Shown piece by piece: positions 14,942 through 31,980 of a stretch of DNA of 64,000 bases. Made by a program: the position numbers and the translations under genes. The stretch is taken from contig JBEKHN010000007.1 in assembly GCA_050012255.1 (NCBI GenBank), forward strand, positions 1-64,000, read 5' to 3'. Under the pieces are notes generated by a model. That model was given only the letters and a program-made list of their open reading frames with translations, had not been told where the DNA came from and did not search any database. The stretch's first letter is position 1; each line of letters begins with the position of its first letter. The DNA comes from Candidatus Bathyarchaeia archaeon (GTDB lineage: Archaea > Thermoproteota > Bathyarchaeia > Bathyarchaeales > Bathycorpusculaceae).

Positions 14942-15706
14942 CTAAGCATCTTTCTTTCCAGAACGCTTTGCCTTGACTAGCTTGATTTCCAAGATACCGT
15001 TCCTGAACTTTGATTCAGCAGGGTTCTTCTTGACAGATGTCGGAAGTTTCACTTCTTTATAGTACTTTCTTGCAGAAGTGTCAGCCCTTATCGTTAAGAG
15101 ATCGTTCTCTACTTCCAGTTTTACCTTGTTTTCTTCTATACCAGGCAGTTCAGCCATGACATTCACGAAGTCCCCGTCTTCGAAGACATCAACCATTGGT
15201 TCTCTCTCCTTTATTGGAGTCTGAGGAATCTGCGTAGGCGCAGAAGAAATCTTGCTCTGAGGCTTACTTATCTTTATTCTGTCTGCCACAGGTGCCGCAG
15301 ACCCTTTTATCGGACGAGAAGTCACGCGGAAGTTGACTTCCCCTGTTTTTCCAAGTTCGATTCTTTTTTGATATGTCTCAGATTTTTCCGCTAGTTTGCT
15401 TAAATCATTGATTAATCCAACGAATCCTTGACCCTTCGGTTTTCCGCCCCGGCTCTTCTCCGATGTGCCAAAAATGCCGAAACCAACGTCAAGCAGACCT
15501 GAGACATTCTCGATGACCTTGCCTAGATCTCCTTCGCCAGTTTTCTCTTCTCGGATTTGAGCTCCCATCTTTTCCATTTTTTCTTTTAACTGTTCAATTT
15601 CTTTTCTTTTTTGTTCAATCTCTGCCTTGAGCGCTTCTAAATCTTTTTTAGGTTCGGTTTTTTCCATTTTTTCTTTTTTGGTCGTTTTTTCACCTCCTTT
15701 GTTCAC
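14942..15706 (-). CDS. Hsp20/alpha-crystallin protein with N-terminal coiled coil
   Basis: REPMVDVFED...AELPGI...KYYKEVKLP...FRNGILEIKL. Confidence 0.88.
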   Translation of the reverse strand: MNKGGEKTTKKEKMEKTEPKKDLEALKAEIEQKRKEIEQLKEKMEKMGAQIREEKTGEGDLGKVIENVSGLLDVGFGIFGTSEKSRGGKPKGQGFVGLINDLSKLAEKSETYQKRIELGKTGEVNFRVTSRPIKGSAAPVADRIKISKPQSKISSAPTQIPQTPIKEREPMVDVFEDGDFVNVMAELPGIEENKVKLEVENDLLTIRADTSARKYYKEVKLPTSVKKNPAESKFRNGILEIKLVKAKRSGKKDA

Positions 15707-16682
15707 TGGTTGCTTGCAGCCTTTCCTCCATGGCTAGGTAATCTTCCGGCGTCGCAAAATATCTGGCCTTGAGCGGGGGGGTCTTTTCCAAAGCGATTTT
15801 CACGCCCTCAATCCAATGTTTGTCTAGAACGGCCTTTGCGAGTGGGTAGCCTAAGTAATATGAGAGCCCTTTGATTATCTGGGAGCATTTGAAGAGCTCT
15901 TCGACCAAGTTCTCCGCATTTGCTTCTCGGTTTCGAGACCCTTCGCATGGCAGGGACATTTCGGCTTTTTTTGCCCCTTCTGTGCTTCTTCTGCTTTCGA
16001 GGGCAAAGAGAAGCTTTACACATTTTGCATGCCCTATCAGCAGTTCTTTTTCTAGCGACGCCGTGTCTGATGCATACCCTGTGTTGCGCAGGGTTCGGAG
16101 AGCTATCGCCTCGCAGCACCCTTCTTTGAAGACGCTTTTGAAAACGGTATCTATATACATGTCCAAATATTCCTGGAAAATCTTTGTGCTTTTAGTTCTT
16201 TTTGCTTCGACGTATTTCTTGATGAGAGCTTGGGCGGGTACTTCAGGAGGCTTCGAAAGATAAGTGGATAGAAGTTTCTCCGATAGCTCGTGTGTGCATA
16301 TGGGAATTACTCTTTCTGGGTGGTTTGCTATGACATTTTCATTCATGTACAGAATCTCGTCTTTCGGGTTATAGAAAGCGAAGTTTTCGAAAAATCCTTC
16401 TAACTGGTTCTTTGAAAGGCTGACGGAGATCTGTTTCATGTCGTCGTTGCTGTACGCTACGCCGCTTTCCTTGAGATCGCTCCACATGCGTTTGGCTAAT
16501 TGCTTAAGGAGTTCGGGTTGCTTCATTATCTTAATGTCTTTGAAGTACGCGAAATCGACGCCGAATAATTCCACCATTTTTACATGGATTTTCCAGAGTG
16601 TTTGACTGATCCATTCTTTTGTATATTCTACATCTCCTTGAGACTTCAAACCTTGAATCTCTTTAGCCGTCAGTTTTTTCAT
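15690..16682 (-). CDS. Zincin-like protein with atypical HELSE motif
   Basis: AFYNP..., THELSE, KEGCCE, SYYLGY...PEDY; overlaps cdc48 and hsp20. Confidence 0.5.
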
Positions 16683-18874
16683 GGGAACGGTTCTTCCTGA
16701 TTCTTGTCAACTGATTTTTTGCGTTCCTTTGTTCTCTTGATTGCTTCTCGGAAGTCCTCCATAGTCACTTCAAGCTTGGAGTGTTTTCGTTTGTCTTCAT
16801 CTTGTTCTGTGTTATTGCCTATGTATCTTCTGATGGCCAGCATTACGGCCTCTCTGCAGGTCCCTTCTATGTCAGCCCCCGTGTATCCTTCGGTTTCTGC
16901 AACCAATTTCTCAAGAGAAACGCTCTTGGCGAGAGAACTCCTCTTGGTGTAAATCCTGAAGATTTCCGCTCTCGCCTTTTCGTCTGGGGTTGGGATTGAA
17001 AGAAGATAGTCAAATCTTCCCGCTCTCAGCAGTGCTGGGTCAATTAGATCCATTCGGTTTGTTGCGGCTAAAATAATTACTCCGTGAAGTTCCTCCAGCC
17101 CGTCCATTTCCGTTAGAAGTTGGCTTATTACTCTCTCTGAAACATGCGAGTCTGTAATTCCGCTTCCACGTCTAGGCGTCATAGAGTCTATTTCATCAAA
17201 GAAGATTATGCACGGTGCGGTTTGTTTTGCTTTCCGAAAGGTTTCCCTTATGCCTTTCTCCGACTCGCCCACGAATTTGCTCATGAGCGAGGGCCCCTTA
17301 ACGTGAATGAAGTTAGCCTCGCTTTCCTTTGCCACGGCTTTGGCCAACAGAGTTTTTCCAGCTCCAGGAGGCCCGTATAACAATATGCCTTTCGGGGGCT
17401 TCGCCCCCATTTTTTCAAAGATGTCAGCGTATTTCAATGGCCATTCAATGGCTTCCATTAGGGCTTGTTTCACTTCTTCTAGCCCTCCAACGTCTCTCCA
17501 TCCGACGTTGGGTGTTTCGATCAATACTTCCCTTAGGGCGGAGGGCTCTACAAAACGCAGGGCATCCAGAAAATCTTCCATCGTTACTACAAGTTTGTTA
17601 AGAACTTCTGTCGGGATAAACTCTGCTTCGAAGTCAATCTCGGGCAGAACTCTCCGCAAGGCTTTCATGGCTGCCTCTTTGCATAATCCTGATATGTCAG
17701 CACCAGTGAAGCCATGAGTCACGTCGCCGAGTCTTCGCAAGTTGACGTCTTCGGTTAGCGGCATACCCCTCGTGTGAATTTGAAGAATCTCGAATCGTCC
17801 TTCCCTGTTGGGTATCCCTATTTCTATTTCCCGGTCGAATCTCCCTGATCTTCTAAGAGCTGGGTCAATGGCATTAGGTCGATTTGTCGCTCCAATAATC
17901 ATCACCTGTCCTCTAGGTTCTAGTCCATCCATCAGAGCTAGCAATTGGGAAACCACTCGCTTCTCAACTTCTCCCGTAACCTCTTCTCTCTTGGGTGCTA
18001 TGGCATCGATTTCGTCAATGAATATGATGCACGGCTTGTTTTGCGCGGCTTCATTGAAGATTTCCCTCAGGCGGGCCTCAGATTCTCCGTAGTATTTACC
18101 GTGGATTTCGGCGCCGCTGAGGCTGATGAAAGTTGCGAAAGTTTCGTTCGCGACGGCTTTTGCAATGAGGGTTTTTCCTGTGCCTGGTGGCCCGTGCAGC
18201 AAGACGCCTTTGGGTGGTTCTATACCTAGTCGGTCAAAGACCTCTGGGTGTCGAAGCGGAAGCTCTATCATCTCCCTTATTCTCTGAGTCTGTTCGCGAA
18301 GGCCGCCAATGTCTTCGTATGTGATCGCTGCTCTTCTTCCTGTTTCCGCGGCCTTTTCTTGTATCATCATTTTCGTGGTAGGGTAAACTATAACAGCCAT
18401 ATTCTTCGGTTTCAATTGTGCTACGACGAAAGAGGCACTTGTCCCGAGAAAACTAAGTCTGACTTGGTCTCCTTCAGTCAGCGGCAAACCTTCCAAAAGC
18501 TTCCTCGCATGCTCTTCGTACGTCTTCTCTCTAGGCCAAGACTGAGTTTTGTCCAAAGGTGCGAGAACAACGCTTTCGGCCTTTTCAGCAACAACCTTCT
18601 CGATGTGAACCTTGTCGTCAATTCCAATAAGTGCGTTGTTTCTGGCTATCCCGTCGATCTGGATGATACCTTTTCCCCGGTTTTCCGGGTATGCTGGCAT
18701 AACCTTGGCAGCGGTTCTTTTCTTTCCAGTAATCATGATAACGTCCCCTGTTTCAGCCTTGATTTTCGCTAGATCTTCAGGGTCGACTCTAGCTATACCC
18801 CTGCCGAAGTCTCTTTGCGCGGCTTCAGCCACACGAAGCGTTAAGATATTCGATTTTTGTGTGTGTTCTGTCAT
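16679..18874 (-). CDS. cdc48: Cdc48/VAT AAA+ ATPase
   Basis: N domain [11 protein letters not shown]; two AAA modules ([32 protein letters not shown]). Confidence 0.96.
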
Positions 18875-18958
18875 GCGCCCACCCTTCTTCAATTGGACGT
18901 AAATAATTCTTTGTTTATACCAAGAGGTGCCAACGCATAAATATTATTATTGGCTTGG

Positions 18959-19531
18959 TTACACTTTTTCGCACAGTTTTTTCAATCTAAGCTGCAGAAT
19001 GTTATTTCTGTAGGTTAACTCAGCTGCGTCTTTATCGATGCGGGTTGGAAGTCTGACTATCTTAAGATACTTCTTCGCCGCATTCTCCGCCGTTATGGTT
19101 ACAGAGTCTTCATCTGCCTTTATATTCACGTCTTTCTCATCTACGCCAGGTAGCTCTGTCAAAACTGTCAAGTAGTTTTCTTCTTCAAAAACGTCGATTG
19201 TTGGCTGTCTCTCGTCTGTCAAACTGGGTATATGATGAAGCAACGCCAAGCTTTGCGTTGCCCCTGGTCGTTTTAATCTTCTTGCGGCGTTAAAAGAGCC
19301 TCTCAATGTCATCGTACTGAAGGAAACTGCTTTCCTCGTGGCGTGCGTCTGAGGGACATAGGCTTGTTCAAAGCGAACGAAGTGTCTGCAACCTTGGCAA
19401 TGGCCTATGTTGACTCTGTCTCTTTTGGTGCTCCTAATCGAAGGACAGAAAACCCATTCAGCCCCCGCGATACCTCTAACCAAGAGCTTGTTCTTTCCTC
19501 TTCCGAGAGTTGCTTTACAAGTCAGCCACAT
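18959..19531 (-). CDS. Hsp20 domain protein with Cys-rich N-terminus
   Basis: FCPS...CQGCRHF, then PTIDVFEE...ELPGV...YRNNILQLRL. Confidence 0.8.
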   Translation of the reverse strand: MWLTCKATLGRGKNKLLVRGIAGAEWVFCPSIRSTKRDRVNIGHCQGCRHFVRFEQAYVPQTHATRKAVSFSTMTLRGSFNAARRLKRPGATQSLALLHHIPSLTDERQPTIDVFEEENYLTVLTELPGVDEKDVNIKADEDSVTITAENAAKKYLKIVRLPTRIDKDAAELTYRNNILQLRLKKLCEKV

Positions 19532-19633
19532 TTAACATTCACGTGTGATAGGTATAGATTTAAGAGAATGTGTATAAACCATATTTCACAATTTGGCATA
19601 TTCCGTGGGTCATAGTGCACTTTTGTATCGTTT

Positions 19634-19678
19634 TTCGATACGAAGCCAGTTACGCTCCATTGAATATATCTTAAATAG
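19634..19678 (+). promoter_or_regulatory. Promoter copy 1 (TTCGATACGAA palindrome plus BRE/TATA)
   Basis: 41/45 identical to 20652-20696. Confidence 0.8.
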
Positions 19679-19713
19679 TAAGACACTATAAAAAGTCGAA
19701 AAGAGGATTAAAA

Positions 19714-20082
19714 ATGAGCGATTTAGAAAAGCTAGGCAAATACGCATTCATGGCATGCATCATGATAGCACTAGTCGCTGGAGTAGCGTCTGTCTTCGCA
19801 GATTTCAGTTCTGCATGGATCGCGTTGGTACTAGTCGTCCTCGGCGTGTGCGTGGGCCTTACCACTATTACTGGGAAAGAAGTTACACCGCTTCTGCTGG
19901 CTGCAATAGCCTTGACAGTTGCAAGTTCAGGTGGCTGGTTCTTGATTATCAACGAAGCAGTGGCTAAACTTGGGACGTTCATTAACAACACAATGTACAA
20001 CATGGTGTCCTTTGTAGCTCCAGCTGCAATCATACTGGCAACAAAGATGATCTACCAACTACCGCGCGCTAGCGAAAAATAG
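19714..20082 (+). CDS. 4-TM membrane protein
   Basis: Hydrophobic helices, SD GAGGA, followed by a T-run. Confidence 0.8.
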   Translation: MSDLEKLGKYAFMACIMIALVAGVASVFADFSSAWIALVLVVLGVCVGLTTITGKEVTPLLLAAIALTVASSGGWFLIINEAVAKLGTFINNTMYNMVSFVAPAAIILATKMIYQLPRASEK

Positions 20083-20088
20083 ACTCAT

Positions 20089-20100
20089 CCTCCTTTTTTT
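20089..20100 (+). terminator. Oligo-T terminator
   Basis: CCTCCTTTTTTT after the stop; similar CCTCCCTTTTTTT at ~21498-21510. Confidence 0.5.
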
Positions 20101-20114
20101 CTGAAAAATCAGTC

Positions 20115-20480
20115 TCATAATTTAGACTCAGGTTGAACCGAGGATTTGATTTGACCCTTTCTAACGCTTGTCATGTGCGCCTGGTAGACTTTCAGTGCAC
20201 TCTTCCTTGATTTGATGCTTCTACCCACCGCAGAGAGAAACAACAATATGACTAAGAAATTCAGAACAGCAAATGAGTTGAAATCAGTCTTCAAGAAATC
20301 GAGTCCAATCTTGAAATTCCACATCACGAGGAGTATGAAGCACATGAACAATGTTAGGTTTCGCCTATGTTTGAAGTTAAACATGTTGTTCTTCCACATT
20401 TTGCAGTAGCGCTCAAGTTCGTCGCAACGATCGCAGCTATCGTTGAAAGCGCAATATTCGCCAAAACATCGTCTATCCAT
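20115..20480 (-). CDS. Two-TM protein with N-terminal five-Cys cluster
   Basis: CFGEYCAFNDSCDRCDELERYC followed by two TM helices. Confidence 0.6.
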   Translation of the reverse strand: MDRRCFGEYCAFNDSCDRCDELERYCKMWKNNMFNFKHRRNLTLFMCFILLVMWNFKIGLDFLKTDFNSFAVLNFLVILLFLSAVGRSIKSRKSALKVYQAHMTSVRKGQIKSSVQPESKL

Positions 20481-20651
20481 TGTTCGCTCACACTGTTGAA
20501 CAACTCATTTTGCGTTAAAACCTATGTTCCCAAAACCGCTAATTACCCACTTGGGAATATCCTTGTGCATCAAACGTGTCAAAAGGCGCGGATGATTTTG
20601 CTCAAGCCCGCAGTATGACGTGAGCTGCAATTTGGTCAACAAATATCGACC

Positions 20652-20696
20652 TTCGATACGAAGTCAGTTACATCCCATTGAATATATCTTAAATAG
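20652..20696 (+). promoter_or_regulatory. gvpA promoter (copy 2)
   Basis: TTCGATACGAAGTCAGTTACATCCCATTGAATATATCTTAAATAG. Confidence 0.8.
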
Positions 20697-20744
20697 CACT
20701 ATTCACTACTTAGGACGTCGTATAAAATAAAAAGGTGAAAAAAA

Positions 20745-20969
20745 ATGGTCGGACAAACTCCTAACTCAACCAGTTTGGCTGAAGTTCTCGACAGAGTGCT
20801 TGACAAGGGAATCGTCGTTGACCTTTGGGCCAGAGTCTCTCCAGTGGGCATCGAACTCTTGACCATCGAAGCAAGAGTTGTGGTTGCCTCTGTAGACACC
20901 TTCCTGCACTACGCCGAAGAGATCACGAAGATAGAACAAGCAGCCATCGGAGTACCTGCTACCGCATAA
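20745..20969 (+). CDS. gvpA: Major gas vesicle structural protein GvpA
   Basis: [51 protein letters not shown]. Confidence 0.97.
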
Positions 20970-21011
20970 GACCGTTGAACAGCAAGCGGCCCTATACAGG
21001 AGAGGAAAAAA

Positions 21012-21491
21012 ATGTCTAAAAAAGAGAAAAAAGCGGCAAAGCATGTGCAAGCGGTTGCTGAGACTGCAAAAACGGCACCTGCGAAAAAGCACAGTCAAGG
21101 GGCCGCCATGCAAGTGAAAGAGCCAAAAGAGACCCTCCCTCCTTCGACAGTCAGAGGCAAGATTGAGGCAATCCAAAGAGAAATAGAAGCAATTCAGATC
21201 AAAAGAGGGGCTATTGAAGAAGGCGCCGCTGAAATCCACAAAGGCATACGAGCTATGGAAGCAAGCATAAACAAGCAGATCGACAAATACAAAGACGCTA
21301 TCGTTAACTTCTATGCACGTGTTGGAGACTTCAATAACTGTATCCTTGCGCAGTCGAAGGAAAACGAAAGAGCTGCCGCAGCCATCTATTCTGGCACAAG
21401 AGAAATCCAAGCAGGCACAGAAGCCATGCGGTCAAGGATTGAAGACAAGATAAAGGAAAATGCAGGGTACGCGAAGAACTTCTACGGGTAA
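21012..21491 (+). CDS. GvpC-like helical repeat protein
   Basis: Between gvpA and gvpN; internal repeats AAEIHKG/AAAIYSG and NFYA/NFYG. Confidence 0.55.
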   Translation: MSKKEKKAAKHVQAVAETAKTAPAKKHSQGAAMQVKEPKETLPPSTVRGKIEAIQREIEAIQIKRGAIEEGAAEIHKGIRAMEASINKQIDKYKDAIVNFYARVGDFNNCILAQSKENERAAAAIYSGTREIQAGTEAMRSRIEDKIKENAGYAKNFYG

Positions 21492-21541
21492 ATACACCCT
21501 CCCTTTTTTTCAATTCGTCAAGCTTATGTTAGACTCATGAT

Positions 21542-21727
21542 TTGGAGGTGACAAAAATCACCATTATGAGACCAAAAACCCAGTTGCGCGCTCAAGAAAG
21601 AGAAAGAAAGCAAAAGTGGTACATGCATGTCATGGGAAGACTGCAACACCTTTCTGTCGCTATGCGTCCACAAGCGATTCGCGCCTTATGGGTAAGAGAT
21701 GTTGTTAAAAAAGAAGAGGAAGAATAA
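21542..21727 (+). CDS. Small hypothetical protein in gvp cluster
   Basis: Short co-oriented ORF with GGAGGTG SD-like sequence; start uncertain. Confidence 0.4.
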   Translation: MEVTKITIMRPKTQLRAQERERKQKWYMHVMGRLQHLSVAMRPQAIRALWVRDVVKKEEEE

Positions 21728-21884
21728 CCGTCCGCAAAAGGACATCTCCTTTCTATTTCCCAGTTCCGATGTTTCAATATGCTGATAATTCTGGTTTGGG
21801 TTTCTGCGTCAAATGGGTCTTCAACCTCAAAGCTCTATCTATAATCTGTTTATCTTCCGGAGATTTACGATTTCTGACACAGAA

Positions 21885-21916
21885 TTCGTATCGACCTCTT
21901 GAATATTGCTTAAGTA
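21885..21916 (+). promoter_or_regulatory. gvpN promoter (TTCGTATCG-N5-TTGAATATTGCTTAAGTA)
   Basis: Same motif and spacing as 25777-25808. Confidence 0.7.
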
Positions 21917-21960
21917 AGTATACATAAGATTCTTCTTCAAAAAGAGCGTGATTCTGAAAG

Positions 21961-22989
21961 ATGAAATACAAACCCGCACACAAAAGAGAAGTTAGAGGAA
22001 ATAGAATTCATGAAACAATGGAAGAAAGGCTTTCAAAACAGGAAGGTGAACAGTACGCTGTAGAACTCTTGGTTGAAAGTGCCAAAACAGAATTTCTAAC
22101 GCCAACCGTTGAGAATTTTGTTGAAACAGAGCATGTTAAGAAACTGAAGGATAGAGTCAAACTTTGGGTCAATGCAGGATGCCCTCCTCACATTGTAGGA
22201 CCAACAGGTTGTGGAAAAACAACACTAGCGATGGAAGTCGCAAAGGAATTGGGAAGACCTACTGTGTGGATCAACGGTGACGAAGAAATGACAACAACAG
22301 ATTTGATCGGAGGATACTCGGAAATGGAGGCCGAAAGCCTGAGAGACAAATATGTTCACAACGTCATGATAGCTAGAGATAGGACCAAATTCTCATGGAT
22401 AGACAACCCCTTGACCCTGGCGTGCAAATACGGCTACACACTCGTCTACAATGAGTTCTCCAGATCCAAACCGGAAGCCAACAACGTTCTTCTCTCAGTG
22501 CTGGAAGAGAAGATTCTCGAACTTCCAACAATGTTTGGAGATAAGAGATACATCAAGGTCCATCCGGATTTTGCGATAATCTTGACAAGCAACTGCATAG
22601 AATATGCAGGAATACACAAACCTCAGGACGCCTTGCTTGACAGGATAGTAGACATTTACATGGACTACTACGACTATGATACTGAACTAAAGATTGCTCA
22701 AGTTCACACTCACTTGCCGTCTACTGAAGCAGAAAAAGTTGTGAAAGCTGTCAGAACAATCAGAGAAAAGATGCCTGAACCTTACAAGCCAGGCACCAGG
22801 GCAGAAATAATGATCTGCCAAGGACTGAAAGCATTGGGACGCAACCGCTCAAAAGAAAGCATTGAACAAATATACATGGATGTTCTTGCAACAAAAATAG
22901 GCGACCAAAGAGAACTGTTGAAGAAAAGTGACCTCATACATACCGTAATCAAAGAAGCCCACGGAGACTCTCACGATGAAAACACTTAA
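21961..22989 (+). CDS. gvpN: Gas vesicle AAA ATPase GvpN
   Basis: GPTGCGKT, WIDNPLTLACKYGYTLVYNEFSRSKPEANNVLLSVLEE, QDALLDR. Confidence 0.95.
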   Translation: MKYKPAHKREVRGNRIHETMEERLSKQEGEQYAVELLVESAKTEFLTPTVENFVETEHVKKLKDRVKLWVNAGCPPHIVGPTGCGKTTLAMEVAKELGRPTVWINGDEEMTTTDLIGGYSEMEAESLRDKYVHNVMIARDRTKFSWIDNPLTLACKYGYTLVYNEFSRSKPEANNVLLSVLEEKILELPTMFGDKRYIKVHPDFAIILTSNCIEYAGIHKPQDALLDRIVDIYMDYYDYDTELKIAQVHTHLPSTEAEKVVKAVRTIREKMPEPYKPGTRAEIMICQGLKALGRNRSKESIEQIYMDVLATKIGDQRELLKKSDLIHTVIKEAHGDSHDENT

Positions 22990-23070
22990 CGACACGGCTC
23001 AGCATGAAGATAAACAATTTTCAGGCTTGGGAATCAGGGGCACCCTTCTGTCCCTTAGGAGAGATATGGA

Positions 23071-23666: not shown

Positions 23667-23708
23667 CCATTCTGGATTATACAATTGCTATTATAGAGGT
23701 GAGAGGGC

Positions 23709-24542: not shown

Positions 24543-24543
24543 A

Positions 24544-25251
24544 GTGACAACCGAAGAATGCAACGAGCTTTTGAAAAAGCCTGAGGAAAAAGAGGAGAGA
24601 CGGGAGGAACAAGGAAAATATCTCTATGGCATTATACTGTGCAGCGAAGAAAAAAGTTTTGGGCACATAGGAATAAACGGCGAGGAAGTACACACGATTC
24701 CCTATGAAGAAATCGCAGCCGTAGTCAGCAATTCGCCTATGAAGGATTACGAGATTACCGAAGACAATACACGGAGGCACATAGAAGTCTTAAGACAGAT
24801 AATGGAAAGACACACCGTCATACCAGCGGAATTCGGAACGACGATAAAAAACGACAGAATATTGAAGCACTTATTGACAAAGTCTCATGATCTAACTAGA
24901 AAATGTCTAAAGCTGGTTGATAACATGGTTGAGCTGGGCGTGAAGGCCATTCTAAACTCAGACACCGGGTTCACTGATCCGGAGAAAAGAAAGGAATGCA
25001 CATCAGATATCCTGGGGACACTGAACACAATGGCAAAACAATCAGTCACAGGCAACTTGTTCACCAACAGACTGGTTTTAAACGCATCTTTTCTAGTCAA
25101 CAAAGAAGATATTGATGCGTTTTCAGAGAAGGTGGCAAGGCTGCAGGAAAAATACCCCATGGTGAAACTTCTTTATAGCGGCCTCTGGCCCCCACACAAT
25201 TTCGTTTACATAAAAATCGGGGCCCAAGGCATCGAAATCAACAGAAAGTAG
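24544..25251 (+). CDS. gvpF: Gas vesicle protein GvpF
   Basis: YLYGII, IAAVVS, TVIPAEFG, LNASFLV, SGLWPPHNF; precedes gvpG. Confidence 0.85.
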   Translation: MTTEECNELLKKPEEKEERREEQGKYLYGIILCSEEKSFGHIGINGEEVHTIPYEEIAAVVSNSPMKDYEITEDNTRRHIEVLRQIMERHTVIPAEFGTTIKNDRILKHLLTKSHDLTRKCLKLVDNMVELGVKAILNSDTGFTDPEKRKECTSDILGTLNTMAKQSVTGNLFTNRLVLNASFLVNKEDIDAFSEKVARLQEKYPMVKLLYSGLWPPHNFVYIKIGAQGIEINRK

Positions 25252-25259
25252 GTGAACCA

Positions 25260-25553
25260 ATGCCTTTTCTAATAGATGACATTTTGCTTCGAGCACTCGG
25301 CATATCTGTACCGCCATTTGATTTACTCTGGCTAATGGAAACCATCACAAATTACGGTGAGGATGCAAGACGTGAGGAGATCCAGCGAAGAATTAACGAC
25401 AAAATAAAAGAGAACAGATTACTCTACGAACTGGGTGAAATAACAAGAGAGGAATACGAAAACATAAACGGGAAATTAAACCAGCAGCAAAAGATAAGCA
25501 ATCTTGGGGACAAAAAGGACCTCAATAAGAAGATGAATATCAGAATAGAATGA
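25260..25553 (+). CDS. gvpG: Gas vesicle protein GvpG
   Basis: MPFLIDDIL...IKENRLLYELGEITREEY. Confidence 0.88.
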   Translation: MPFLIDDILLRALGISVPPFDLLWLMETITNYGEDARREEIQRRINDKIKENRLLYELGEITREEYENINGKLNQQQKISNLGDKKDLNKKMNIRIE

Positions 25554-25776
25554 TGAAAACAAAGAAGACTCTAAACCGAGTCGTCTCCTCCACAAGCATA
25601 TTCTGGTGTATACTCCCGACAGATGCAAAGCTGCTTTTTCTAGATCAATGATAAGAATGCGGAGATAAAGGCTTGTCACACGAGCAAAAATATCGAGCTG
25701 ATTATTGCCACCGTTTTTGAATGGATACCAACGAAGGAGACAACGTGGCAAGAGCTTGTCAATTCTTGTAACAGGT

Positions 25777-25808
25777 TTCGTATCGGGCTTTTGAATATTG
25801 CTTATGTA
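25777..25808 (+). promoter_or_regulatory. gvpJ operon promoter (TTCGTATCG-N5-TTGAATATTGCTTATGTA)
   Basis: Matches 21885-21916. Confidence 0.7.
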
Positions 25809-25930
25809 CATTCAATTCACACAAATGTAGAAACTGAGGTTAACGCTATTGTGTACTTTGGGACGAGCAGAAAGACGTCCGGAATCAGTTCGGATCACAG
25901 AGTCTCAAGAGATACGGAGGGCCCTGTTGT

Positions 25931-26341
25931 ATGGCGAACCTTAGATCTGTCGAGGAAGAAGAGATGACAACATTAATGCCTCAGAAGGGAAATTCTTCGG
26001 GAGGTTTGGCAGATGCCCTAGACAGGATTCTGGACAAGGGATTGGTGATCAACGCTGACATCGTTGTTTCTGTTGCCGGCGTTGAACTACTTGGAATCAA
26101 AATAAGAGCTGCGCTGGCCTCTTTCGAGACTGCGGCGAAATACGGTTTAGAGTTTCCATCTGGCACAAGCTTAGAGACGAAGGCGTGGAAAGAAGCCGCG
26201 AAAGAAAAAGAACAATGCCCGCAATGCAGCAAAATTGTGGAGAAGGAGCAACTGCTCAATGATCAGTGTCCTTGGTGCGGATGGAGAAGCGCAAGCGCCA
26301 AGATTAAGGAAGAAGCACTGGTGAGGGTAAAGCTCACTTAA
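25931..26341 (+). CDS. gvpJ: GvpJ with C-terminal Zn ribbon
   Basis: LDRILDKGLVINADIVVSVAGVELL...ASFETAAKYGLEFP; CPQC...CPWC. Confidence 0.88.
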   Translation: MANLRSVEEEEMTTLMPQKGNSSGGLADALDRILDKGLVINADIVVSVAGVELLGIKIRAALASFETAAKYGLEFPSGTSLETKAWKEAAKEKEQCPQCSKIVEKEQLLNDQCPWCGWRSASAKIKEEALVRVKLT

Positions 26342-26371
26342 TTGTAGCTCTGGCCAACTGAGGCGACAAGA

Positions 26372-26917
26372 ATGCTTTGGAAACCATCAAGTTCGCACTT
26401 AGGCTCAACGAATACAAATCAAGTCATGAACGCGTTAGATGAGAAGAGCTTCCAGATCCTGGTGTGCCTTCTAAAAGAGAAGCACGCAGGGATCAGAAAG
26501 CTGGCTGATCTCATCGATGCCACTTGCGACATGGAAGTGCTAGTCAGAATAAGGGAGGTCATTAATCCAAAGGTTCAAGAGAGTACGGGGAAGTCCCTCA
26601 TCATTTTTGAACCTTGCAAACTTGATCCACTGACAGGCGAAAAAATCACTTTTTCGTGGTGGTTGAACGAAGAACTAGTAGATCATGCGCCTAGCTGTAA
26701 ATCACTTGACCTCCAGGAGGAAAAGGATACTCTAACGGTAATAGCTTCGATACCCTTGCAGGAAGAAGACGCTAGAGTTGAAGTTAAAGATGATTTTCTC
26801 ATTATAGCTGGAAAAGAATACTATCAGGAAGTCTTTCTCACCAGTGCCGTTGAGGGAGATGTGAAGAAGACAGTTAACAATGGCGTTTTAGAAGTTGTGC
26901 TGAAGAAGAAGCGGTGA
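26372..26917 (+). CDS. HTH + Hsp20-like protein (GvpH-like)
   Basis: HAGIRKLADLI HTH; C-terminal VNNGVLEVVLKK. Confidence 0.65.
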   Translation: MLWKPSSSHLGSTNTNQVMNALDEKSFQILVCLLKEKHAGIRKLADLIDATCDMEVLVRIREVINPKVQESTGKSLIIFEPCKLDPLTGEKITFSWWLNEELVDHAPSCKSLDLQEEKDTLTVIASIPLQEEDARVEVKDDFLIIAGKEYYQEVFLTSAVEGDVKKTVNNGVLEVVLKKKR

Positions 26918-26923
26918 CAAGAC

Positions 26924-27229
26924 ATGGTAATCAAGGTTGATGAAGGAAACCTCAAACAAGGTTTGCTAGGGCTCGTTGTTGCTTTGGTTGAGATAATAGA
27001 AGAAGCTCTTGAGAGGCAAGCCCTAAGGCGAATTGAGAACGGCAGATTAACTGCTGAAGAAGAGACGAGGCTTGGTGAAGCGCTAGCCGACCTTAACGAG
27101 GCATTGAAACGCATAAAGAAAGAGAACGACATTGAGGATGTCGTAGATTCTGTAATTGATGGTCTTTCTGAAGTGACTGACGTATTTTTAAACCCGGAAA
27201 GATGGGAAGAGGAGATGAAGAAAACATGA
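26924..27229 (+). CDS. gvpK: Gas vesicle protein GvpK
   Basis: GLLGLVVALVEIIEEALERQALRRIENGRLTAEEETRLG. Confidence 0.93.
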   Translation: MVIKVDEGNLKQGLLGLVVALVEIIEEALERQALRRIENGRLTAEEETRLGEALADLNEALKRIKKENDIEDVVDSVIDGLSEVTDVFLNPERWEEEMKKT

Positions 27230-28032
27230 AAGAAACGAAAGTCATCGGAGAAACTAGTCTCAGAGAAGGAAGATACGTGTACTGTGTCGTCGACAGCGGA
27301 GCAAAGTTGCGCTTGGGTAACATAGGAATAGCGAAAGCCGAAGTCTACACAGTTCCCCACAGGGATATTGCAGCAGTAGTGCATGCTTGTCAGAGTCAGC
27401 CCTACCAGTCAGAGGATGCAAACAAGGTCATGGAGTGGATCCTAAGCTACAATGATGTAGTCGACGGGGCTACAGAGCAGTTTGGCACGGTAATTCCCTT
27501 TTCTTTCGACACCATTGTCAAAGGTGATGACATCGCCATCGAGAACTGGCTAGGAAGGAGCTATGAGAAACTCAAGCATGATCTCGAAAGGCTCTGCCAG
27601 AGAGCAGAATATGTGGTTCAGATCTTCTCTGACCAGGACAAGTTAGTAGAAAAAATCCTGGCCGAAAATCAAGCTCTAAGGGAGCTGAAGCAGAAAACAA
27701 GCCAGATGCCTGAACGAGCTGGATACCTTCTTCGTCGAAAATTTGAACTAGGACTAAAAGATGCCTTTAATGCAACGCGAGCCAAACTGGCTGCAGAGTT
27801 CGCTTCCAAGATAAAAGAACACGCTGAAGAAATGGAGATCGAGAGAAGAGTTTCACATTTACCAGAGAACTATAAAGACAAGAAACTAATTGTACCGTTT
27901 TCCTGCCTAGTCCACAAGGATAAGGTCAAAGGTCTGGGCCAAGCGCTCGGTAAAATAAGTCAGGAAGGTTATGCAGTTCGCTTCACTGGGCCATGGGCAC
28001 CATTTAGTTTCGTCAAGCCTGAGGAGATTTAG
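27226..28032 (+). CDS. gvpL: Gas vesicle protein GvpL
   Basis: GRYVYCVV, TVIPFSFDT, TGPWAPFSF; ATGA-coupled to gvpK. Confidence 0.88.
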   Translation: MKETKVIGETSLREGRYVYCVVDSGAKLRLGNIGIAKAEVYTVPHRDIAAVVHACQSQPYQSEDANKVMEWILSYNDVVDGATEQFGTVIPFSFDTIVKGDDIAIENWLGRSYEKLKHDLERLCQRAEYVVQIFSDQDKLVEKILAENQALRELKQKTSQMPERAGYLLRRKFELGLKDAFNATRAKLAAEFASKIKEHAEEMEIERRVSHLPENYKDKKLIVPFSCLVHKDKVKGLGQALGKISQEGYAVRFTGPWAPFSFVKPEEI

Positions 28033-28034
28033 GA

Positions 28035-28628
28035 ATGAGACCTAGCCACCGAGAATGCGACATCAACGACATTCTGCAGAAACTGTTAGACAAGGGGCTA
28101 GTTCTGAACGCGGACCTGATCCTGTCTGTTGCAGGCGTTCCGCTGCTGGGAGTGAACTTGAAGGCGGCAATCGCAGGGATAGAGACCATGCTTGAATATG
28201 GAATGATGGAAGCGTGGGACAAGCGCACAAGAGAATGGTATGAGAAAGAATGCACGAAAAAAGCAGTAGTGCCGCTAGCCATGGATGAGGAGATAATAAC
28301 CAAAGCCTTTGGATCGGTCTGGAGTAACCAAGGCATCGTGAACACATGGAAGCCAGGCGTCTGGTACCTCACGAACAATAGACTCTTTCTTTGGAGGAAG
28401 GAGCCTACTGAGGTTGTTTTTGAAGCACCTTTAGGTAAGATAGAGGGACTTGTGGTGCAAAAGGAAGCCCACTTCAAGAAAGAGCGTGATGAGCTTTATC
28501 TCCAGTTCACTGGTGGCGAAGTGGGCCGTGTTTACACTTCAGACATTGGGGAATTCAAGGAAGCGATTGGAAATGCGTTGCTCGCTTCACTCAGTCGCAA
28601 GCAAGATCACAGGAGTGAAATGAGGTGA
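28035..28628 (+). CDS. gvpM: GvpM (GvpA family) fused to PH/GRAM-like domain
   Basis: LLDKGLVLNADLILSVAGVPLLGVNLKAAIAGIETMLEYG; C-terminal GVWYLTNNRLFLW. Confidence 0.75.
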   Translation: MRPSHRECDINDILQKLLDKGLVLNADLILSVAGVPLLGVNLKAAIAGIETMLEYGMMEAWDKRTREWYEKECTKKAVVPLAMDEEIITKAFGSVWSNQGIVNTWKPGVWYLTNNRLFLWRKEPTEVVFEAPLGKIEGLVVQKEAHFKKERDELYLQFTGGEVGRVYTSDIGEFKEAIGNALLASLSRKQDHRSEMR

Positions 28629-29620
28629 AGAGAAGTATGGATAAGACGAGAAAGTATGTCTATGGAATTGTAGGATCAGCAGATGAAGAGAGCTTCGGCC
28701 GCATTGGCATTGACAACAGCGAGGTGTGTGTAGTTCGATACGAAGATATTGGCACCGCAGTTAGTGATGTCCCTGAAAGCTTGAAGATTGACGTAGAAGA
28801 GGCTGGGGTTCACGAGAAGGCATTGCAGAAAATTATGGAGACTCACACAGTAATCCCCATTGGTTTTGGCGTCGTAGCCAGAGATGAGACAGAGATAAGA
28901 AACGTTTTGAAGCGAGCTCGAAAGAAGTTCCAGCACATCTTGAGAAACATAGACCACAAAGTCCAGGTCAACGTCAAGATTTCATGGGACAAAGCAATCC
29001 TAGTATCCATTCTGGAAGAAAACGAAGAAATACGAACATTGAGCAGAGAAATAACGGAGAACAGCGACCAGTCGTTAAGAATTGAGCTTGGAAAGAAAGT
29101 CAAGTCAGCCCTGGACAGGAAGAAAAACGAATACTTAGAGAATATAGAAATCGCTTTGAAGAGTTTGGCGGATGGGTTTAAAGAAAACAAAATCGTTGAT
29201 CATGACACCTTAATGAGCGCTTCTTTTCTGGTTGAAAAGAGACAAGGACAGGAATTCAATGCTAAATTAGAGGAATTGGAAAGAAAGTACAAGGGGAAAC
29301 TTGAGTTCAAAAGCCTCAGTCCTCTGCCGCCATACAATTTCGTGAATGTTGAAATGAAAAGGATAGATTTCAAGGCTGTAGAAGGAGCACGAAGAATCTT
29401 GGATCTTGGTCAGGAAATAAGCATATCCGAAGTAAACTCAGCATACGATCTGCTTGCGCGGGAATGTCACCCAGACCTCCACTCAGACGACCCCCTTTCT
29501 GAAGAGAAATTTAAGAAGCTCAAAGACGCACACGAATTGCTAATAAAATACTGCGAGCATTATCTCTGCTCTCTCGAGAAATCCAAGGTTGAAGAAACTC
29601 TCCTTATACAAGAAAGTTAG
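28625..29620 (+). CDS. GvpF/L family protein with C-terminal J-domain
   Basis: YVYGIV, TVIPIGFG, PLPPYNF, then ILDL...AYDLLARECHPD...EKFKKLKDAHELL. Confidence 0.9.
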   Translation: MKRSMDKTRKYVYGIVGSADEESFGRIGIDNSEVCVVRYEDIGTAVSDVPESLKIDVEEAGVHEKALQKIMETHTVIPIGFGVVARDETEIRNVLKRARKKFQHILRNIDHKVQVNVKISWDKAILVSILEENEEIRTLSREITENSDQSLRIELGKKVKSALDRKKNEYLENIEIALKSLADGFKENKIVDHDTLMSASFLVEKRQGQEFNAKLEELERKYKGKLEFKSLSPLPPYNFVNVEMKRIDFKAVEGARRILDLGQEISISEVNSAYDLLARECHPDLHSDDPLSEEKFKKLKDAHELLIKYCEHYLCSLEKSKVEETLLIQES

Positions 29621-29650
29621 CTGAACTATCCTCCGGGATGGCAGATTGGA

Positions 29651-31570
29651 ATGAGCCGAACAGTAGGAATAGACCTCGGAACTACCAACTCTGCTGCAGC
29701 TGTGCTGAAAGATGGTAAAATAAGGCTTGTTCCAGCATCTGAAGGAGCGACTCCATATGGAAAAATGTTTCCCTCTGTCGTAGCTTTTAGAGAAGATGGC
29801 GAAATAACCATCGGGAAAAACGCGCAGACGTACGCTTACATTCGTCCTGACAGGACGATAAGATGGATCAAGAGACAAATCGGCACAGACTACGCTGTAG
29901 AGATAGATGGTCACAAGTACACACCTCAAGAGATTTCTGCGCTCATGATAAAGAAGATAAAAGAAGATGCTGAAACGTACCTAGAAGAGAAAATAGACAA
30001 AGCGGTAATCTCAACTCCCGCGTATTTCAATAACAACCAAAGAAACGCTACAAAAGAGGCGGGAGAAAAAGCAGGGTTAAAGGTTTTGCGAATTATCAGC
30101 GAACCGACGGCAGCCTCATTAGCTTACGGTCTAGACAAGATTGGCCAGAACCTGAAAATCGCGGTGTTGGATCTGGGCTCTGGAACCTTTGATGTGACGA
30201 TCCTGCAAATGAGTAACGGAATTTTCAAAGTCCTGTCTACAAGCGGAGACACCCATCTCGGTGGTAAAGACATGGACGACAGAATTCTAGACCACCTCGT
30301 CAAGGAAGTCGAAGAAAGATACAACGTTAACGTACGAAATGACCAGATAATTTTGAATAAGCTCAGAGACGCTGGTGAACTAGCCAAGATTCATCTGTCT
30401 AGCAGGCGTTCAACAATCGTAAAGACTCGGATCAGCATCGAAGGGACAGAAATCAACCCAAGCATCGTTCTAACACGAGACAAGCTAGAGGAACTCATAA
30501 AGCCTGAAATTAATAGGCTCCAATATCCGTTGGGACAAGCCTTGAAAGATTCCGGCCTTGATTCTCAAGACATAAATAAACTCATTCTCGTGGGCGGACC
30601 AACCAGAATGCCAATAGTTAGAAAATACTTCAAAGATTTCTTCTCAAGATTAGAACCTGAGAAGGGCATAGATCCGATGGGGATCGTTGCAATTGGCGCT
30701 TGTATACAGGCAAGCGTTCTGGAAGGTGAAATGAGAGATATGCTCTTGCTGGATGTTACTCCTCTGTCCTTAGGCGTCGAGACCTCTGGTGGAATATTCA
30801 CCAGGTTGATCAAGAGGAATACAACAATTCCAGCCGAGGCATGCATGGTTTTTGCAACGGAAGAAGACGACCAGACTTCAATGATGATCCACGTTCTACA
30901 AGGAGAAAGGGAGATGGCGAAGGACAACATATCACTAGGTTTGTTTAAGCTAGATGGCATTTTGCCAGAGCCCAGATACGAACAGAAGGTCGAAGTCACC
31001 TTCAAAATCGATGCTAATGGCATACTGGGCGTCTCTGCCGAAATTCTGGAGACCGGGAAAAAAGAAACGATCAAAGTATTAAAGTCGACAGCGCTGTCAG
31101 CAGAAGAAATCACCAGAATGGTCATCGAGGCAACCAAGTTTAACGATTTAGACGAAAAGAGAAAAGAGATCATCGAAATCCGTTGCCGGGCAAAGAATGT
31201 GATTTACGAGGCAAAGAAAGCGATAAAAGAGCTAATCGGAAAAATCACTGAAAACGAAAAATGGACTCTGGAAGAAACTTTAGGCAGACTTGAGAGGGCG
31301 TTGAATAGCAGCAATGCTCAGAAAATCGAAGACTACATTGATACGTTAGTGGAGCAGACCAACGGAATGACGATGAAGGTGAAAATGGTAAGCCAAGCCA
31401 AGATATTGGCCCTTGCAGTAGAGAGAAGACTGAGTGACAACACATCCAGCGAAGAAAGAAGAAAAATCACGGAAACAATAAAGAAACTTGAAGAAGCGCC
31501 ATACAGAGACACCGAAAAAGAGATGAACAAACTGAAAGAAATCATAACTCTTTTAGAAGCGAGACAATGA
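29651..31570 (+). CDS. dnaK: Hsp70 chaperone DnaK
   Basis: GIDLGTTNS, EPTAASLAYG, DLGSGTFDV, LVGGPTRMP, DVTPLSLG. Confidence 0.95.
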   Translation: MSRTVGIDLGTTNSAAAVLKDGKIRLVPASEGATPYGKMFPSVVAFREDGEITIGKNAQTYAYIRPDRTIRWIKRQIGTDYAVEIDGHKYTPQEISALMIKKIKEDAETYLEEKIDKAVISTPAYFNNNQRNATKEAGEKAGLKVLRIISEPTAASLAYGLDKIGQNLKIAVLDLGSGTFDVTILQMSNGIFKVLSTSGDTHLGGKDMDDRILDHLVKEVEERYNVNVRNDQIILNKLRDAGELAKIHLSSRRSTIVKTRISIEGTEINPSIVLTRDKLEELIKPEINRLQYPLGQALKDSGLDSQDINKLILVGGPTRMPIVRKYFKDFFSRLEPEKGIDPMGIVAIGACIQASVLEGEMRDMLLLDVTPLSLGVETSGGIFTRLIKRNTTIPAEACMVFATEEDDQTSMMIHVLQGEREMAKDNISLGLFKLDGILPEPRYEQKVEVTFKIDANGILGVSAEILETGKKETIKVLKSTALSAEEITRMVIEATKFNDLDEKRKEIIEIRCRAKNVIYEAKKAIKELIGKITENEKWTLEETLGRLERALNSSNAQKIEDYIDTLVEQTNGMTMKVKMVSQAKILALAVERRLSDNTSSEERRKITETIKKLEEAPYRDTEKEMNKLKEIITLLEARQ

Positions 31571-31608
31571 AAAAAAGGGTTAAGGCCCCGCATGGAAATT
31601 CGGAATGC

Positions 31609-31980
31609 CTACGAATCATTCGGAGGATCTTTTCCATTTCTTTTCACGAAGTTCTCCAGATGATTTATTGACAATCTGAACGCCGCGAACGCATTCTGCA
31701 ATCTTTTTCTCCCCTCATTGGTGGGTTCGTAAACTTTCTTCCCTCCCTCAACACGTGATTCTACCAATTTCTTTTCCTCCAACAAATGAAGAAGAGGGTA
31801 CAGAGAACCTGGACTAAGCAAGACGCCGAACTCCTTGTGTATATCCGCCATTATCTTGTACCCGTACATAGGCTTGCCGTTCAATATTGCCAAAACCACC
31901 AAATCAAGGGTTGTTTTAACGTACCTTCCAGAAGTCCTTTCTTCGAGTCGCCCAACGTTTACAAAGTTGTTTGCGGTCAT
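31609..31980 (-). CDS. PadR family regulator
   Basis: PMYGYKIM...EFGVLLSPGSLYPLL...KKVYEPTNEG. Confidence 0.9.
   Translation of the reverse strand: MTANNFVNVGRLEERTSGRYVKTTLDLVVLAILNGKPMYGYKIMADIHKEFGVLLSPGSLYPLLHLLEEKKLVESRVEGGKKVYEPTNEGRKRLQNAFAAFRLSINHLENFVKRNGKDPPNDS

Follow-up and report, generated by a model that had tools for sequence, protein, structure and literature searches.

A gas vesicle gene cluster was analyzed in a 64,000-nucleotide (nt) stretch of contig JBEKHN010000007.1 (GCA_050012255.1) from a Candidatus Bathyarchaeia archaeon; this whole stretch is referred to as the window, and the gas vesicle protein (gvp) region occupies positions 14942–31980. Genes were called from a listing of open reading frames (ORFs) combined with Pfam and NCBIfam scans, and 24 ORFs were scanned within 14942–31980. 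The region contains intact gvpA, gvpN, gvpO, gvpF, gvpG, gvpJ, gvpK, gvpL and gvpM genes, a third GvpF/L gene, DnaK, Cdc48, three Hsp20-domain genes and two PadR-type genes. An earlier reading of the letters without database searches (the sequence-only reading) had named these genes, and Pfam, NCBIfam and profile scans found every one of them as an open frame at the coordinates listed below. Eight other cluster loci contain the whole gene set as well, at 31–97% protein identity, and five of them come from metagenome-assembled genomes (MAGs) titled Bathyarchaeia or Bathyarchaeota; because of this recurrence, the set does not represent a chance neighborhood. The nine near-complete clusters compared here are those of the window, L008 (on contig C26 of the same bin), L010, L012, L013, L014, L015, L026 and L027. 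The core gvp genes and the gene in the gvpC position are as follows, all on the plus strand:

20745–20969, plus: gvpA, major shell protein, 74 amino acids (aa); PF00741, 54 bits against a cut-off of 25.
21012–21491, plus: CC159, C-like repeat-containing helical protein, 159 aa, in the gvpC position; orthologs 28–85% identical.
21961–22989, plus: gvpN, AAA+ ATPase; Pfam AAA_5 and the TIGR02640 equivalog model, 321.6 against a cut-off of 266.8.
23071–23370, plus: gvpO; PF05800, 60.3 bits, above the cut-off of 25.
24544–25251, plus: gvpF; PF06386, 145.8 bits.
25260–25553, plus: gvpG; PF05120, 24.4 bits against a cut-off of 30.6; NF045779, E 1.1e-7; syntenic in all nine clusters.
25931–26341, plus: gvpJ; PF00741, 60.9 bits; C-terminal CxxC...CxxC zinc-ribbon extension.
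26924–27229, plus: gvpK; PF05121, 65.5 bits, above the cut-off of 25.
27202–28032, plus: gvpL; PF06386, 201.1 bits; NF045778, 208.7 against a cut-off of 200.
28035–28628, plus: gvpM-like, 197 aa, a GvpA-family N-terminus followed by a C-terminal domain of about 130 aa; PF00741, 46.1 bits.

The plus-strand genes are arranged in the order TM122, gvpA, CC159, sm61, gvpN, gvpO, unk94, MEDS-PadR, gvpF, gvpG, gvpJ, Hsp20c, gvpK, gvpL, gvpM-like, GvpF/L-J and DnaK. The minus strand carries a PadR gene (31609–31980) and a series divergent from gvpA, consisting of Hsp20b, Cdc48, unk330 and Hsp20a. The earlier description of a near-complete gvp set therefore holds, with A, N, O, F, G, J, K, L and M all found and GvpG below its Pfam cut-off but syntenic. 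GvpA also exceeds two NCBIfam cut-offs (NF046092, 129.5 against 112; NF006874, 126.4 against 100), and 59–66 of its 74 residues align with the solved shell proteins 8gbs (E 1.5e-22) and 7r1c (E 4.3e-22), in comparison with which its hydrophobic β-hairpin core is conserved. Three GvpF/L proteins matching PF06386 are encoded in the cluster (145.8, 201.1 and 186.7 bits), and the Walker A motif of GvpN is intact. The best NCBIfam matches of GvpJ and the GvpM-like protein are halo_gas_GvpJ (98.9 bits) and halo_gas_GvpM (80.1 bits), both under the lineage-specific cut-offs; GvpJ additionally shows a weak zinc-finger match (NF041910), and the C26 ortholog of the GvpM-like protein a weak bPH_3 match. 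CC159 carries no GvpC signature, yet in 8 of 8 orthologs its internal helical repeats score above all 30 shuffles made of each; it is therefore treated as a candidate GvpC analogue by position and architecture, and not as a demonstrated member of the family.

The chaperone and unfoldase genes lie on both strands:

28625–29620, plus: GvpF/L-J fusion, the third GvpF/L; PF06386, 186.7 bits, and a C-terminal DnaJ domain (PF00226, 41.2 against a cut-off of 27.8).
29651–31570, plus: DnaK, cluster-specific Hsp70 paralog; PF00012, 591.9 bits over model positions 2–74 and 101–595.
26372–26917, plus: Hsp20c, 181 aa, the C-terminal half holding an alpha-crystallin domain; occupies the gvpH position, between gvpJ and gvpK.
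18959–19531, minus: Hsp20b, Cys-rich N-terminus and alpha-crystallin domain; PF00011, 22.2 bits; NF041800, E 2.2e-25.
16679–18892, minus: Cdc48, Cdc48/VAT-type double AAA+ ATPase; TIGR01243, 1005 against a cut-off of 802.65.
15690–16682, minus: unk330, zincin-like protein with H-E-x-x-E-K and E-G-x-x-E motifs; overlaps Cdc48 by 4 nt and Hsp20a by 17 nt.
14942–15706, minus: Hsp20a, 254 aa, N-terminal coiled coil and C-terminal alpha-crystallin domain; PF00011, 31.6 bits; NF041800, E 2.4e-29; orthologs in seven cluster loci.

The J domain fused to the third GvpF/L protein, which had gone unmentioned in the sequence-only reading, contains the HPD motif, as do 12 of 12 orthologs. In metagenomes, the fusion is represented by 259 protein clusters at E ≤ 1e-5, and the best 120 of these all possess both domains. 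The cluster DnaK, which scores above the cut-off of NF001413 (659.7 against 648) and under that of TIGR02350 (651 against 822), is 48% identical to the housekeeping DnaK, which is encoded in a canonical grpE-dnaK-dnaJ operon on contig C10 of the same genome. In a DnaK tree, 10 cluster DnaKs and 5 housekeeping DnaKs form separate clades with a support of 100/100. The cluster Cdc48 comprises CDC48_N, CDC48_2 and two AAA domains and shows 57% identity to the housekeeping Cdc48 on contig C2 and 77% to the C26 copy; a C-terminus of the hydrophobic-Tyr-X (HbYX) type, which docks to the 20S proteasome, was not found, the Cdc48 C-termini of eight orthologs being unconserved and lacking a hydrophobic-Tyr-X ending. 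Hsp20b is the sole Hsp20 protein matching the GvpH model, and this resemblance is weak (PF05455, E 0.0024, 18.4 bits against a cut-off of 22). Hsp20c has no Pfam match and resembles generic Hsp20 models, not GvpH (NF041800, E 2.2e-10; eight-ortholog profile against PDB 4rzk, an Hsp20, E 1.5e-10). The chaperone-rich architecture that had been pointed out from the letters is thus an integral part of the cluster, conserved across the related loci.

The 330-aa protein unk330 has no Pfam or NCBIfam match, and its sequence profiles gave no match to PDB at E < 0.1; the family is very small, with 19 representatives among 1.84 billion proteins. An AlphaFold2 (AF2) model built from 17 sequences reached a mean predicted local distance difference test score (pLDDT) of 80.3, in place of 57.5 for an earlier model from eight sequences. 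Structural alignment of this model with VIA-align returned 3cmn at Z 14.4 (237 residues, root-mean-square deviation 4.1), M1 aminopeptidases at Z 9–10.4 and thermolysin at 7.9, and nearly all of the 50 rows are metallopeptidases, going by the entry titles. Foldseek likewise placed 3cmn at E 6e-3, with nothing at E ≤ 0.001, and an atlas search returned Zincin_2 at 0.89, under the trust level of 0.9 and hence a lead only. All 17 sequences have the same residues at H131, E132, E135, K136, E187, G188 and E191. The modeled protein thus resembles a zincin-like protease fold with metal-site-like residues; it is classed as zincin-like only and not as a zincin, because the second His of the H-E-x-x-H motif is replaced by Glu135 in all 17 sequences. 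A predicted complex of unk330 with the N domain of Cdc48 (residues 1–205) scored 0.00 against a mark of 0.32, which speaks neither for nor against binding.

Two regulator genes, four copies of a 14-nt motif and several small genes complete the cluster:

23709–24542, plus: MEDS-PadR, sensor-like domain and winged helix; PF14417, 31.2 bits; PF03551, 29.7 bits; in the position of haloarchaeal gvpD/E.
31609–31980, minus: PadR regulator; PF03551, 58.8 bits.
19660–19673, plus: motif copy 1, upstream of TM122; part of the 53-nt repeat D3.
20678–20691, plus: motif copy 2, upstream of gvpA.
21899–21912, plus: motif copy 3, upstream of gvpN.
25791–25804, plus: motif copy 4, upstream of gvpJ.
19714–20082, plus: TM122, small hydrophobic membrane protein with hydrophobic segments; orthologs beside the clusters in L010, L014 and L028.
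20115–20480, minus: 121-aa Cys-rich ORF with a hydrophobic segment, between TM122 and gvpA; 83% identity in L010 and 62% over 105 aa in L012 (BA2).
21542–21727, plus: sm61, small basic protein, 61 aa, between the gvpC-like gene and gvpN; orthologs in eight loci; ratio of non-synonymous to synonymous substitution (dN/dS) 0.12.
23382–23666, plus: unk94, small, very basic protein, 94 aa; orthologs in L010, L011, L012 and L014.

The four exact copies of the 14-nt motif compare with 0.27 expected in the window, and all of them lie on the plus strand inside the cluster. The motif recurs upstream of gvpA and gvpN in L008, L010, L012, L013 and L014, and its sharing among cluster promoters fits a common regulator, for which the PadR-type proteins would be the obvious candidates. 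Orthologs of MEDS-PadR are present in all eight other cluster loci and also in L011 and L016. Homology of this protein to GvpD or GvpE was considered and discarded, given that no GvpD-family match was obtained at E ≤ 0.01. Neither TM122 nor unk94 has a family match in the Pfam and NCBIfam scans. The 121-aa Cys-rich ORF is probably a further cluster gene. Three other minus-strand ORFs were rejected as genes: 19686–20033 and 20766–21410 are antisense overlaps of TM122 and gvpA/CC159, and 25476–25811 is split in L010.

Across the nine near-complete clusters, DnaK and the J-domain fusion are present in nine of nine, as is MEDS-PadR, and Cdc48, unk330 and Hsp20a occur together in eight, not having been seen in the 19.9 kb covered for L026. 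L026 and L027, which belong to a second Bathyarchaeial family, keep DnaK, the J fusion and MEDS-PadR at 31–57% identity, and L027 also keeps Cdc48, the zincin-like protein and Hsp20a. The dN/dS values against L010 range from 0.06 to 0.68 and are below 1 in 22 of 22 genes, the short genes having small counts; at the sequence level, this shows that the cluster is selectively maintained under purifying selection. A GvpN profile run over species-representative genomes recovered seven loci, six of which are from MAGs titled Bathyarchaeia or Bathyarchaeota, including BA2; the seventh lies on a 6-kb contig of a "Pseudomonadota" MAG, has the same archaeal-type architecture as the other loci, and is suspected to be mis-binned. 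L013, the cluster of a Bathyarchaeia MAG, has contig coordinates and scores identical to those of a genome labeled as belonging to the family of the window genome. Elsewhere, the window encodes archaeal exosome components, proteasome alpha, SBDS, prefoldin and a TackOD1 protein. The source had been taken from the letters to be a probable Bathyarchaeon, which agrees with the titles of six of the seven related loci and with the same-family genome carrying L013.

A second, divergent cluster is located at positions 1346–17641 of the 19.8-kb contig C26 (L008) of the same bin; its gene set, chaperones included, matches that of the window's cluster, with 32–85% protein identity between the two. It is not a recent duplicate, because its DnaK groups with that of L015 and not with that of the window. 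It has two additional genes, encoding a 108-aa GvpJ-like protein (7328–7654) and an ArsR-family protein (13046–13678), and a tRNA-Lys(CTT) gene (17688–17765) directly follows the last cluster gene, which is an adjacency only. Since the flanks of C26 were not found in four congeners, its placement in this genome is based solely on binning. A tblastn search of the bin found the C-terminal region of UvrC only once, in a fragment on C26.

The distribution of the cluster was assessed with GvpA-family (PF00741) genes. These were detected in 1 of the 40 nearest relatives and in none of 10 same-genus genomes; in 6 of 400 genomes from an even sampling of the class (window's family, 3 of 103; second family, 3 of 71); and in 7 of 400 genomes across the phylum, 5 of which lie outside the class. 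The cluster is thus a rare accessory island, not a lineage trait. A survey of gvpA and gvpN over Bathyarchaeia had been suggested in the sequence-only reading; on these counts for gvpA, the cluster recurs in the class but does not mark the lineage. A same-order genome, G032, keeps only a GvpM-like gene, DnaK, a truncated J fusion (223 aa, HPD intact) and a membrane protein gene (L028, G032:C4 4880–8620), and no gvpA was found anywhere in this genome. This remnant indicates that the cluster can decay; in L028, either the cluster is decaying or its chaperone pair has been put to another use. Sequencing runs with DNA of the locus are labeled as metagenomes of peat, wetland or freshwater sediment. 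In one peat run, X1, the sequence of the window itself has a depth of about 14, and contigs of a variant cluster (90–99% similar, window 13500–33400) have depths of 270–370; a much more abundant relative with the cluster shares this sample.

The borders of the cluster are marked by copies of a tRNA 3′-end:

14546–14562, no strand assigned: left direct repeat (attL-like), a 17-nt partial copy of the tRNA 3′-end; same-genus homology ends at 14562.
32507–32523, no strand assigned: right direct repeat (attR-like), inside the tRNA 3′-end.
32511–32623, minus: intron-containing tRNA gene (anticodon CAT), the integration target; Rfam RF00005, 56.6 bits, E 4.6e-10; missed by ARAGORN.

The segment 14563–32506 is a horizontally acquired genomic island of 17.9 kb at the 3′-end of this tRNA(CAT) gene. 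In the same-genus genome G007 the site is empty, window position 14562 being joined directly to 32507, and a wetland metagenome contig (run X5) contains an empty-site joint from 14537 to 32505, which is weak in that its shorter side has only 23 letters. In G001, the same tRNA site (L031, G001:C1 ~4440–8990) has taken up different small inserts, with several partial repeats of the tRNA 3′-end at their borders, and judged from these inserts it looks like an integration hot spot. Rfam at its gathering threshold identified no tRNA in seven related loci, and targeting of a tRNA gene is accordingly demonstrated for the window only. The cluster is 92.6% identical in nucleotides to that of L010 over 17,269 nt; in the L010 genome, it lies about 0.9 Mb from the homologs of the window's flanks, which are only 66–85% identical, indicating that the whole unit was exchanged recently between otherwise diverged genomes. 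Both window flanks match same-genus genomes at 91–94% nucleotide identity, and a 7.9-kb metagenome contig spans the left junction (13500–15336) with 0 differences, which makes chimerism of the window very unlikely. The sequence-only reading had set a chimeric contig or a methanogen source against its own proposal; with these flanks and a left junction bridged without a difference, both are very improbable.

The remainder of the window was also surveyed. Positions 1–12515, to the left of the conserved flank, have no counterpart in same-genus G001 and are possibly another mobile or defense island; their cargo includes a tyrosine integrase (6–863), an HhH-GPD glycosylase, a C-5 cytosine methylase (4847–5941) and a 671-aa ABC-like ATPase (7537–9552). 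Sequences of about 28–45 nt at ~12304–12340 and ~37301–37345 have many copies (85–96% identity) over several congener contigs and may be a dispersed repeat of the genus. The segments 43495–50348 and 60527–63011 contain, among other genes, those for the TackOD1 output-domain protein and a hemerythrin-PAS protein. An archaeal type IV pilus-like ATPase/platform set is located at 46862–50348, and a flavodiiron-type protein, which fits an oxygen-sensitive lifestyle, is encoded at 61824–63011.

The reading that we consider likely is that this horizontally acquired 17.9-kb island encodes a complete, functional gvp system equipped with its own quality-control module of an Hsp70/J-protein pair, small heat-shock proteins (sHsps) and a Cdc48/zincin-like pair. 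In such a system, GvpA would form the ribbed shell; the minor GvpA-family proteins GvpJ and GvpM, with GvpF, GvpG, GvpK, GvpL and GvpO, would nucleate and build the vesicle; and the AAA+ protein GvpN and the repeat-helix GvpC analogue would enlarge and stiffen it. The J-domain GvpF/L may recruit the cluster DnaK to aggregation-prone hydrophobic GvpA-family proteins or to the growing vesicle, with the genome's single GrpE, from the housekeeping operon, as the putative exchange factor, and the three sHsps would hold unassembled subunits. The products of the divergent operon (Hsp20b, Cdc48, the zincin-like protein and Hsp20a) could act on a regulator, or on shell protein that is misassembled or has collapsed, by extracting it, unfolding it and possibly degrading it, the Cdc48/zincin-like pair resembling a split FtsH-type unfoldase/metalloprotease. 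The PadR-type pair, of which one member has a MEDS sensor, would regulate at least the four promoters that share the 14-nt motif. A broader proposal, which is possible but which we hold with more doubt than trust, is that vesicle assembly in widespread peat, wetland and sediment archaea depends on a co-transferred Hsp70 machine with a GvpF/L-J adaptor, backed up by Cdc48 and an H-E-x-x-E zincin; the island would then be a portable kit for a naive host, and the J-domain step would be general and overlooked.

Several observations weigh against the reading of a functional gvp island with its own proteostasis module. Function is read here from conservation alone. Within the gvp set, GvpG (Pfam), GvpJ and GvpM (both NCBIfam) score under curated family cut-offs; CC159, with four orthologs tested, has no match to PF01304 or any other GvpC model at E ≤ 1; and the Walker B motif of GvpN has Asn-Glu instead of Asp-Glu in 11 of 11 Bathyarchaeial-type sequences (that of the window and 10 orthologs). 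GrpE is not encoded in the cluster, the genome's one GrpE match being that of the C10 operon, and unk330, given its H-E-x-x-E motif, may be catalytically inactive. No integrase domain was found in the 24 ORFs of 14942–31980, and the nearest integrase lies at window positions 6–863. The rarity of PF00741 genes among relatives and across the class and the remnant in G032 point in the same direction, as does the habitat record, since a benefit of buoyancy in peat, wetland and sediment is not obvious; furthermore, no RNA run is listed among the sequencing runs holding the locus.

An alternative is that the gvp genes are functional and that the Cdc48/zincin-like/sHsp operon and the DnaK/J pair serve mainly regulated turnover, that is, vesicle dismantling or regulator degradation, and not assembly. 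In haloarchaea, the GvpD-dependent loss of GvpE provides an analogy for such a role. Cdc48-type ATPases are unfoldases, and here the neighboring gene encodes a protease-like fold; the operon is divergent from gvpA and lacks the 14-nt motif on its strand; and MEDS-PadR sits where gvpD/E sit in the haloarchaeal order given in the available portion of PMC6107691. The fusion of the J domain to a GvpF/L assembly-factor fold nevertheless points to shell proteins as clients, sHsps are holdases and not degraders, and unk330 lacks the canonical second His of the zincin motif, so that we regard turnover as the main role as unlikely. Less probable still is a general stress island merely lying beside the gvp genes, with no specific link to vesicles. 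Hsp20, DnaK and Cdc48 do belong to the general stress response, and unrelated cargo is often gathered by mobile islands, but in this cluster GvpF/L and the J domain form one polypeptide in all 12 of 12 orthologs, the chaperone genes are scattered among the gvp genes (Hsp20c between gvpJ and gvpK, DnaK next to gvpM) and co-occur with them in nine of nine clusters, the cluster DnaKs form their own clade, and housekeeping dnaK, dnaJ, grpE and cdc48 are kept elsewhere in the genome; this explanation therefore appears very improbable.

It is also conceivable that the island is silent or decaying cargo, with genes that are intact since their acquisition was recent, and that no vesicles form in this organism. 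The 92.6% identity to a cluster whose genome has flank homologs of only 66–85% does suggest recent acquisition, and absence of the cluster from 10 of 10 congeners, the G032 remnant and the lack of an integrase in the island would all fit. However, dN/dS is below 1 in every one of the 22 genes, the architecture persists to 31–57% protein identity in another family of the class, the fusion protein is represented by 259 metagenome protein clusters, and the promoter motif is conserved across clusters, all of which leave silent cargo distinctly improbable. Finally, a chimeric contig, or a mis-binned methanogen or other organism, can hardly be credited. Bin contamination amounts to 5.04% and the flanks of C26, the contig of the second cluster, were not found in four congeners; against this, the window's flanks are 91–94% identical to same-genus genomes, in two of which the site is empty, the left junction is bridged exactly by the 7.9-kb contig, and the window carries archaeal exosome, proteasome and prefoldin genes and the TackOD1 gene.

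In peat and anoxic sediments, Bathyarchaeia rank with the most abundant archaea, yet they are almost uncultured. Floating for dispersal or redox positioning, as proposed in the sequence-only reading, would be a conceivable use of the cluster. The finding is genomic only; it suggests that these sediment microbes can make flotation organelles and that there may be a new way of assembling gas vesicles. If true, a flotation organelle in some Bathyarchaeia would change the view of their dispersal and vertical positioning and would provide a physical handle for their enrichment, either through flotation or through the change in density that follows pressure collapse. That the whole 17-kb unit was recently transferred between genomes with a far more diverged background suggests that the set works as a portable module. 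According to the sections available of PMC12848028, GvpA is aggregation-prone, expression of gas vesicles in Escherichia coli causes proteotoxic stress that assembly factors relieve, and aggregation of shell protein is a known bottleneck for gas-vesicle engineering and acoustic reporters. The cluster offers candidate helper genes in this respect, namely the J-domain GvpF/L and its matched Hsp70, the three sHsps and the Cdc48/zincin-like pair.

Gas-vacuole genes have been noted in ammonia-oxidizing archaea, including a mention for Ca. Nitrosotalea, in the portions available of PMC5767755 and, for the ammonia oxidizers, PMC7554672. The earlier statement that no characterized example was known from TACK (Thaumarchaeota, Aigarchaeota, Crenarchaeota and Korarchaeota) archaea thus stands for characterized vesicles but not for genes, in view of these reports and of the five genomes outside the class among 400 of the phylum. 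Other Thermoproteota gvp loci (G576, G755, G490 and G650, probably ammonia oxidizers) encode GvpA-family, GvpK and GvpL homologs; within 10 kb on either side of two loci of the phylum outside Bathyarchaeia, only A, J, K and L were detectable with the window proteins (26–65% identity), and DnaK, the J fusion, Cdc48, GvpN and MEDS-PadR were not found. No paper on Bathyarchaeial gas vesicles was found in the literature, subscription journals and supplementary tables lying outside the searchable text, and none on a GvpL-DnaJ fusion in a literature search partly judged by titles. Public annotation already labels the fusion proteins as GvpL/GvpF family in Bathyarchaeia, and the carrier BA2 has a GenBank record; as far as could be searched, Bathyarchaeial gvp genes are therefore visible in public records but undiscussed.

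A fusion of the same kind is encoded on the plasmid pOA238_160 of Octadecabacter arcticus 238 (L043, 13764–14846), as a 360-aa GvpL/GvpF protein with a C-terminal DnaJ domain (PF06386, 145.9 bits; PF00226, 28.0 against a cut-off of 27.8). It is the only plasmid match extending into the J domain among the best 10 of 35 records, and Octadecabacter is described as a gas-vesiculate genus in the part available of PMC7876419. The gvp cluster there also holds an Hsp20 gene; unlike that of the window, it belongs to a bacterium and lies on a plasmid, the annotation of the 28.8 kb viewed around it lists no DnaK, Cdc48 or zincin-like gene, and the fusion is only 29.9% identical. The Octadecabacter fusion, which arose independently, supports a real link between Hsp70 and vesicle formation and indicates that such a fusion is not unique to archaea. 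The solved shell proteins 8gbs and 7r1c are likewise bacterial, and the comparison with them is limited to the shell protein. With FtsH and Cdc48/VAT-protease pairs, the window shares a Cdc48-family double-ring ATPase translationally coupled, through a 4-nt gene overlap, to a thermolysin/M1-like zincin fold; unlike in FtsH, Cdc48 and unk330 are separate polypeptides, the motif is H-E-x-x-E, there is no conserved HbYX ending, and their binding is only putative.

The closest characterized system is that of the haloarchaeal vac regions (Halobacterium salinarum p-vac and c-vac: gvpACNO and gvpDEFGHIJKLM), in which, according to the excerpted text of PMC6107691, gvpA, F, G, J, K, L, M, N and O are required, gvpC, D, E, H and I are dispensable, and GvpH keeps GvpM from aggregating. 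The core families A, N, O, F, G, J, K, L and M are common to both, in a similar order: A, C-like, N, O, then a regulator, F, G, (J), an H-like sHsp, K, L and M. GvpN of the window is 42–45% identical to haloarchaeal GvpN over 96% of its length, the best NCBIfam matches of its A, J and M proteins are haloarchaeal models, and an Hsp20-like protein occupies the GvpH position. The window differs in having one continuous plus-strand gvp series instead of two divergent gvp operons, no GvpC recognizable from sequence, and no GvpD, GvpE or GvpI homolog at E ≤ 0.01, with MEDS-PadR and PadR instead. The J-domain GvpF/L, DnaK, Cdc48, the zincin-like protein and two more sHsps fall outside the 14-gene haloarchaeal set as given in that excerpt (PMC6107691). 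What distinguishes the Bathyarchaeial cluster from characterized clusters is its built-in proteostasis module of chaperones and an unfoldase.

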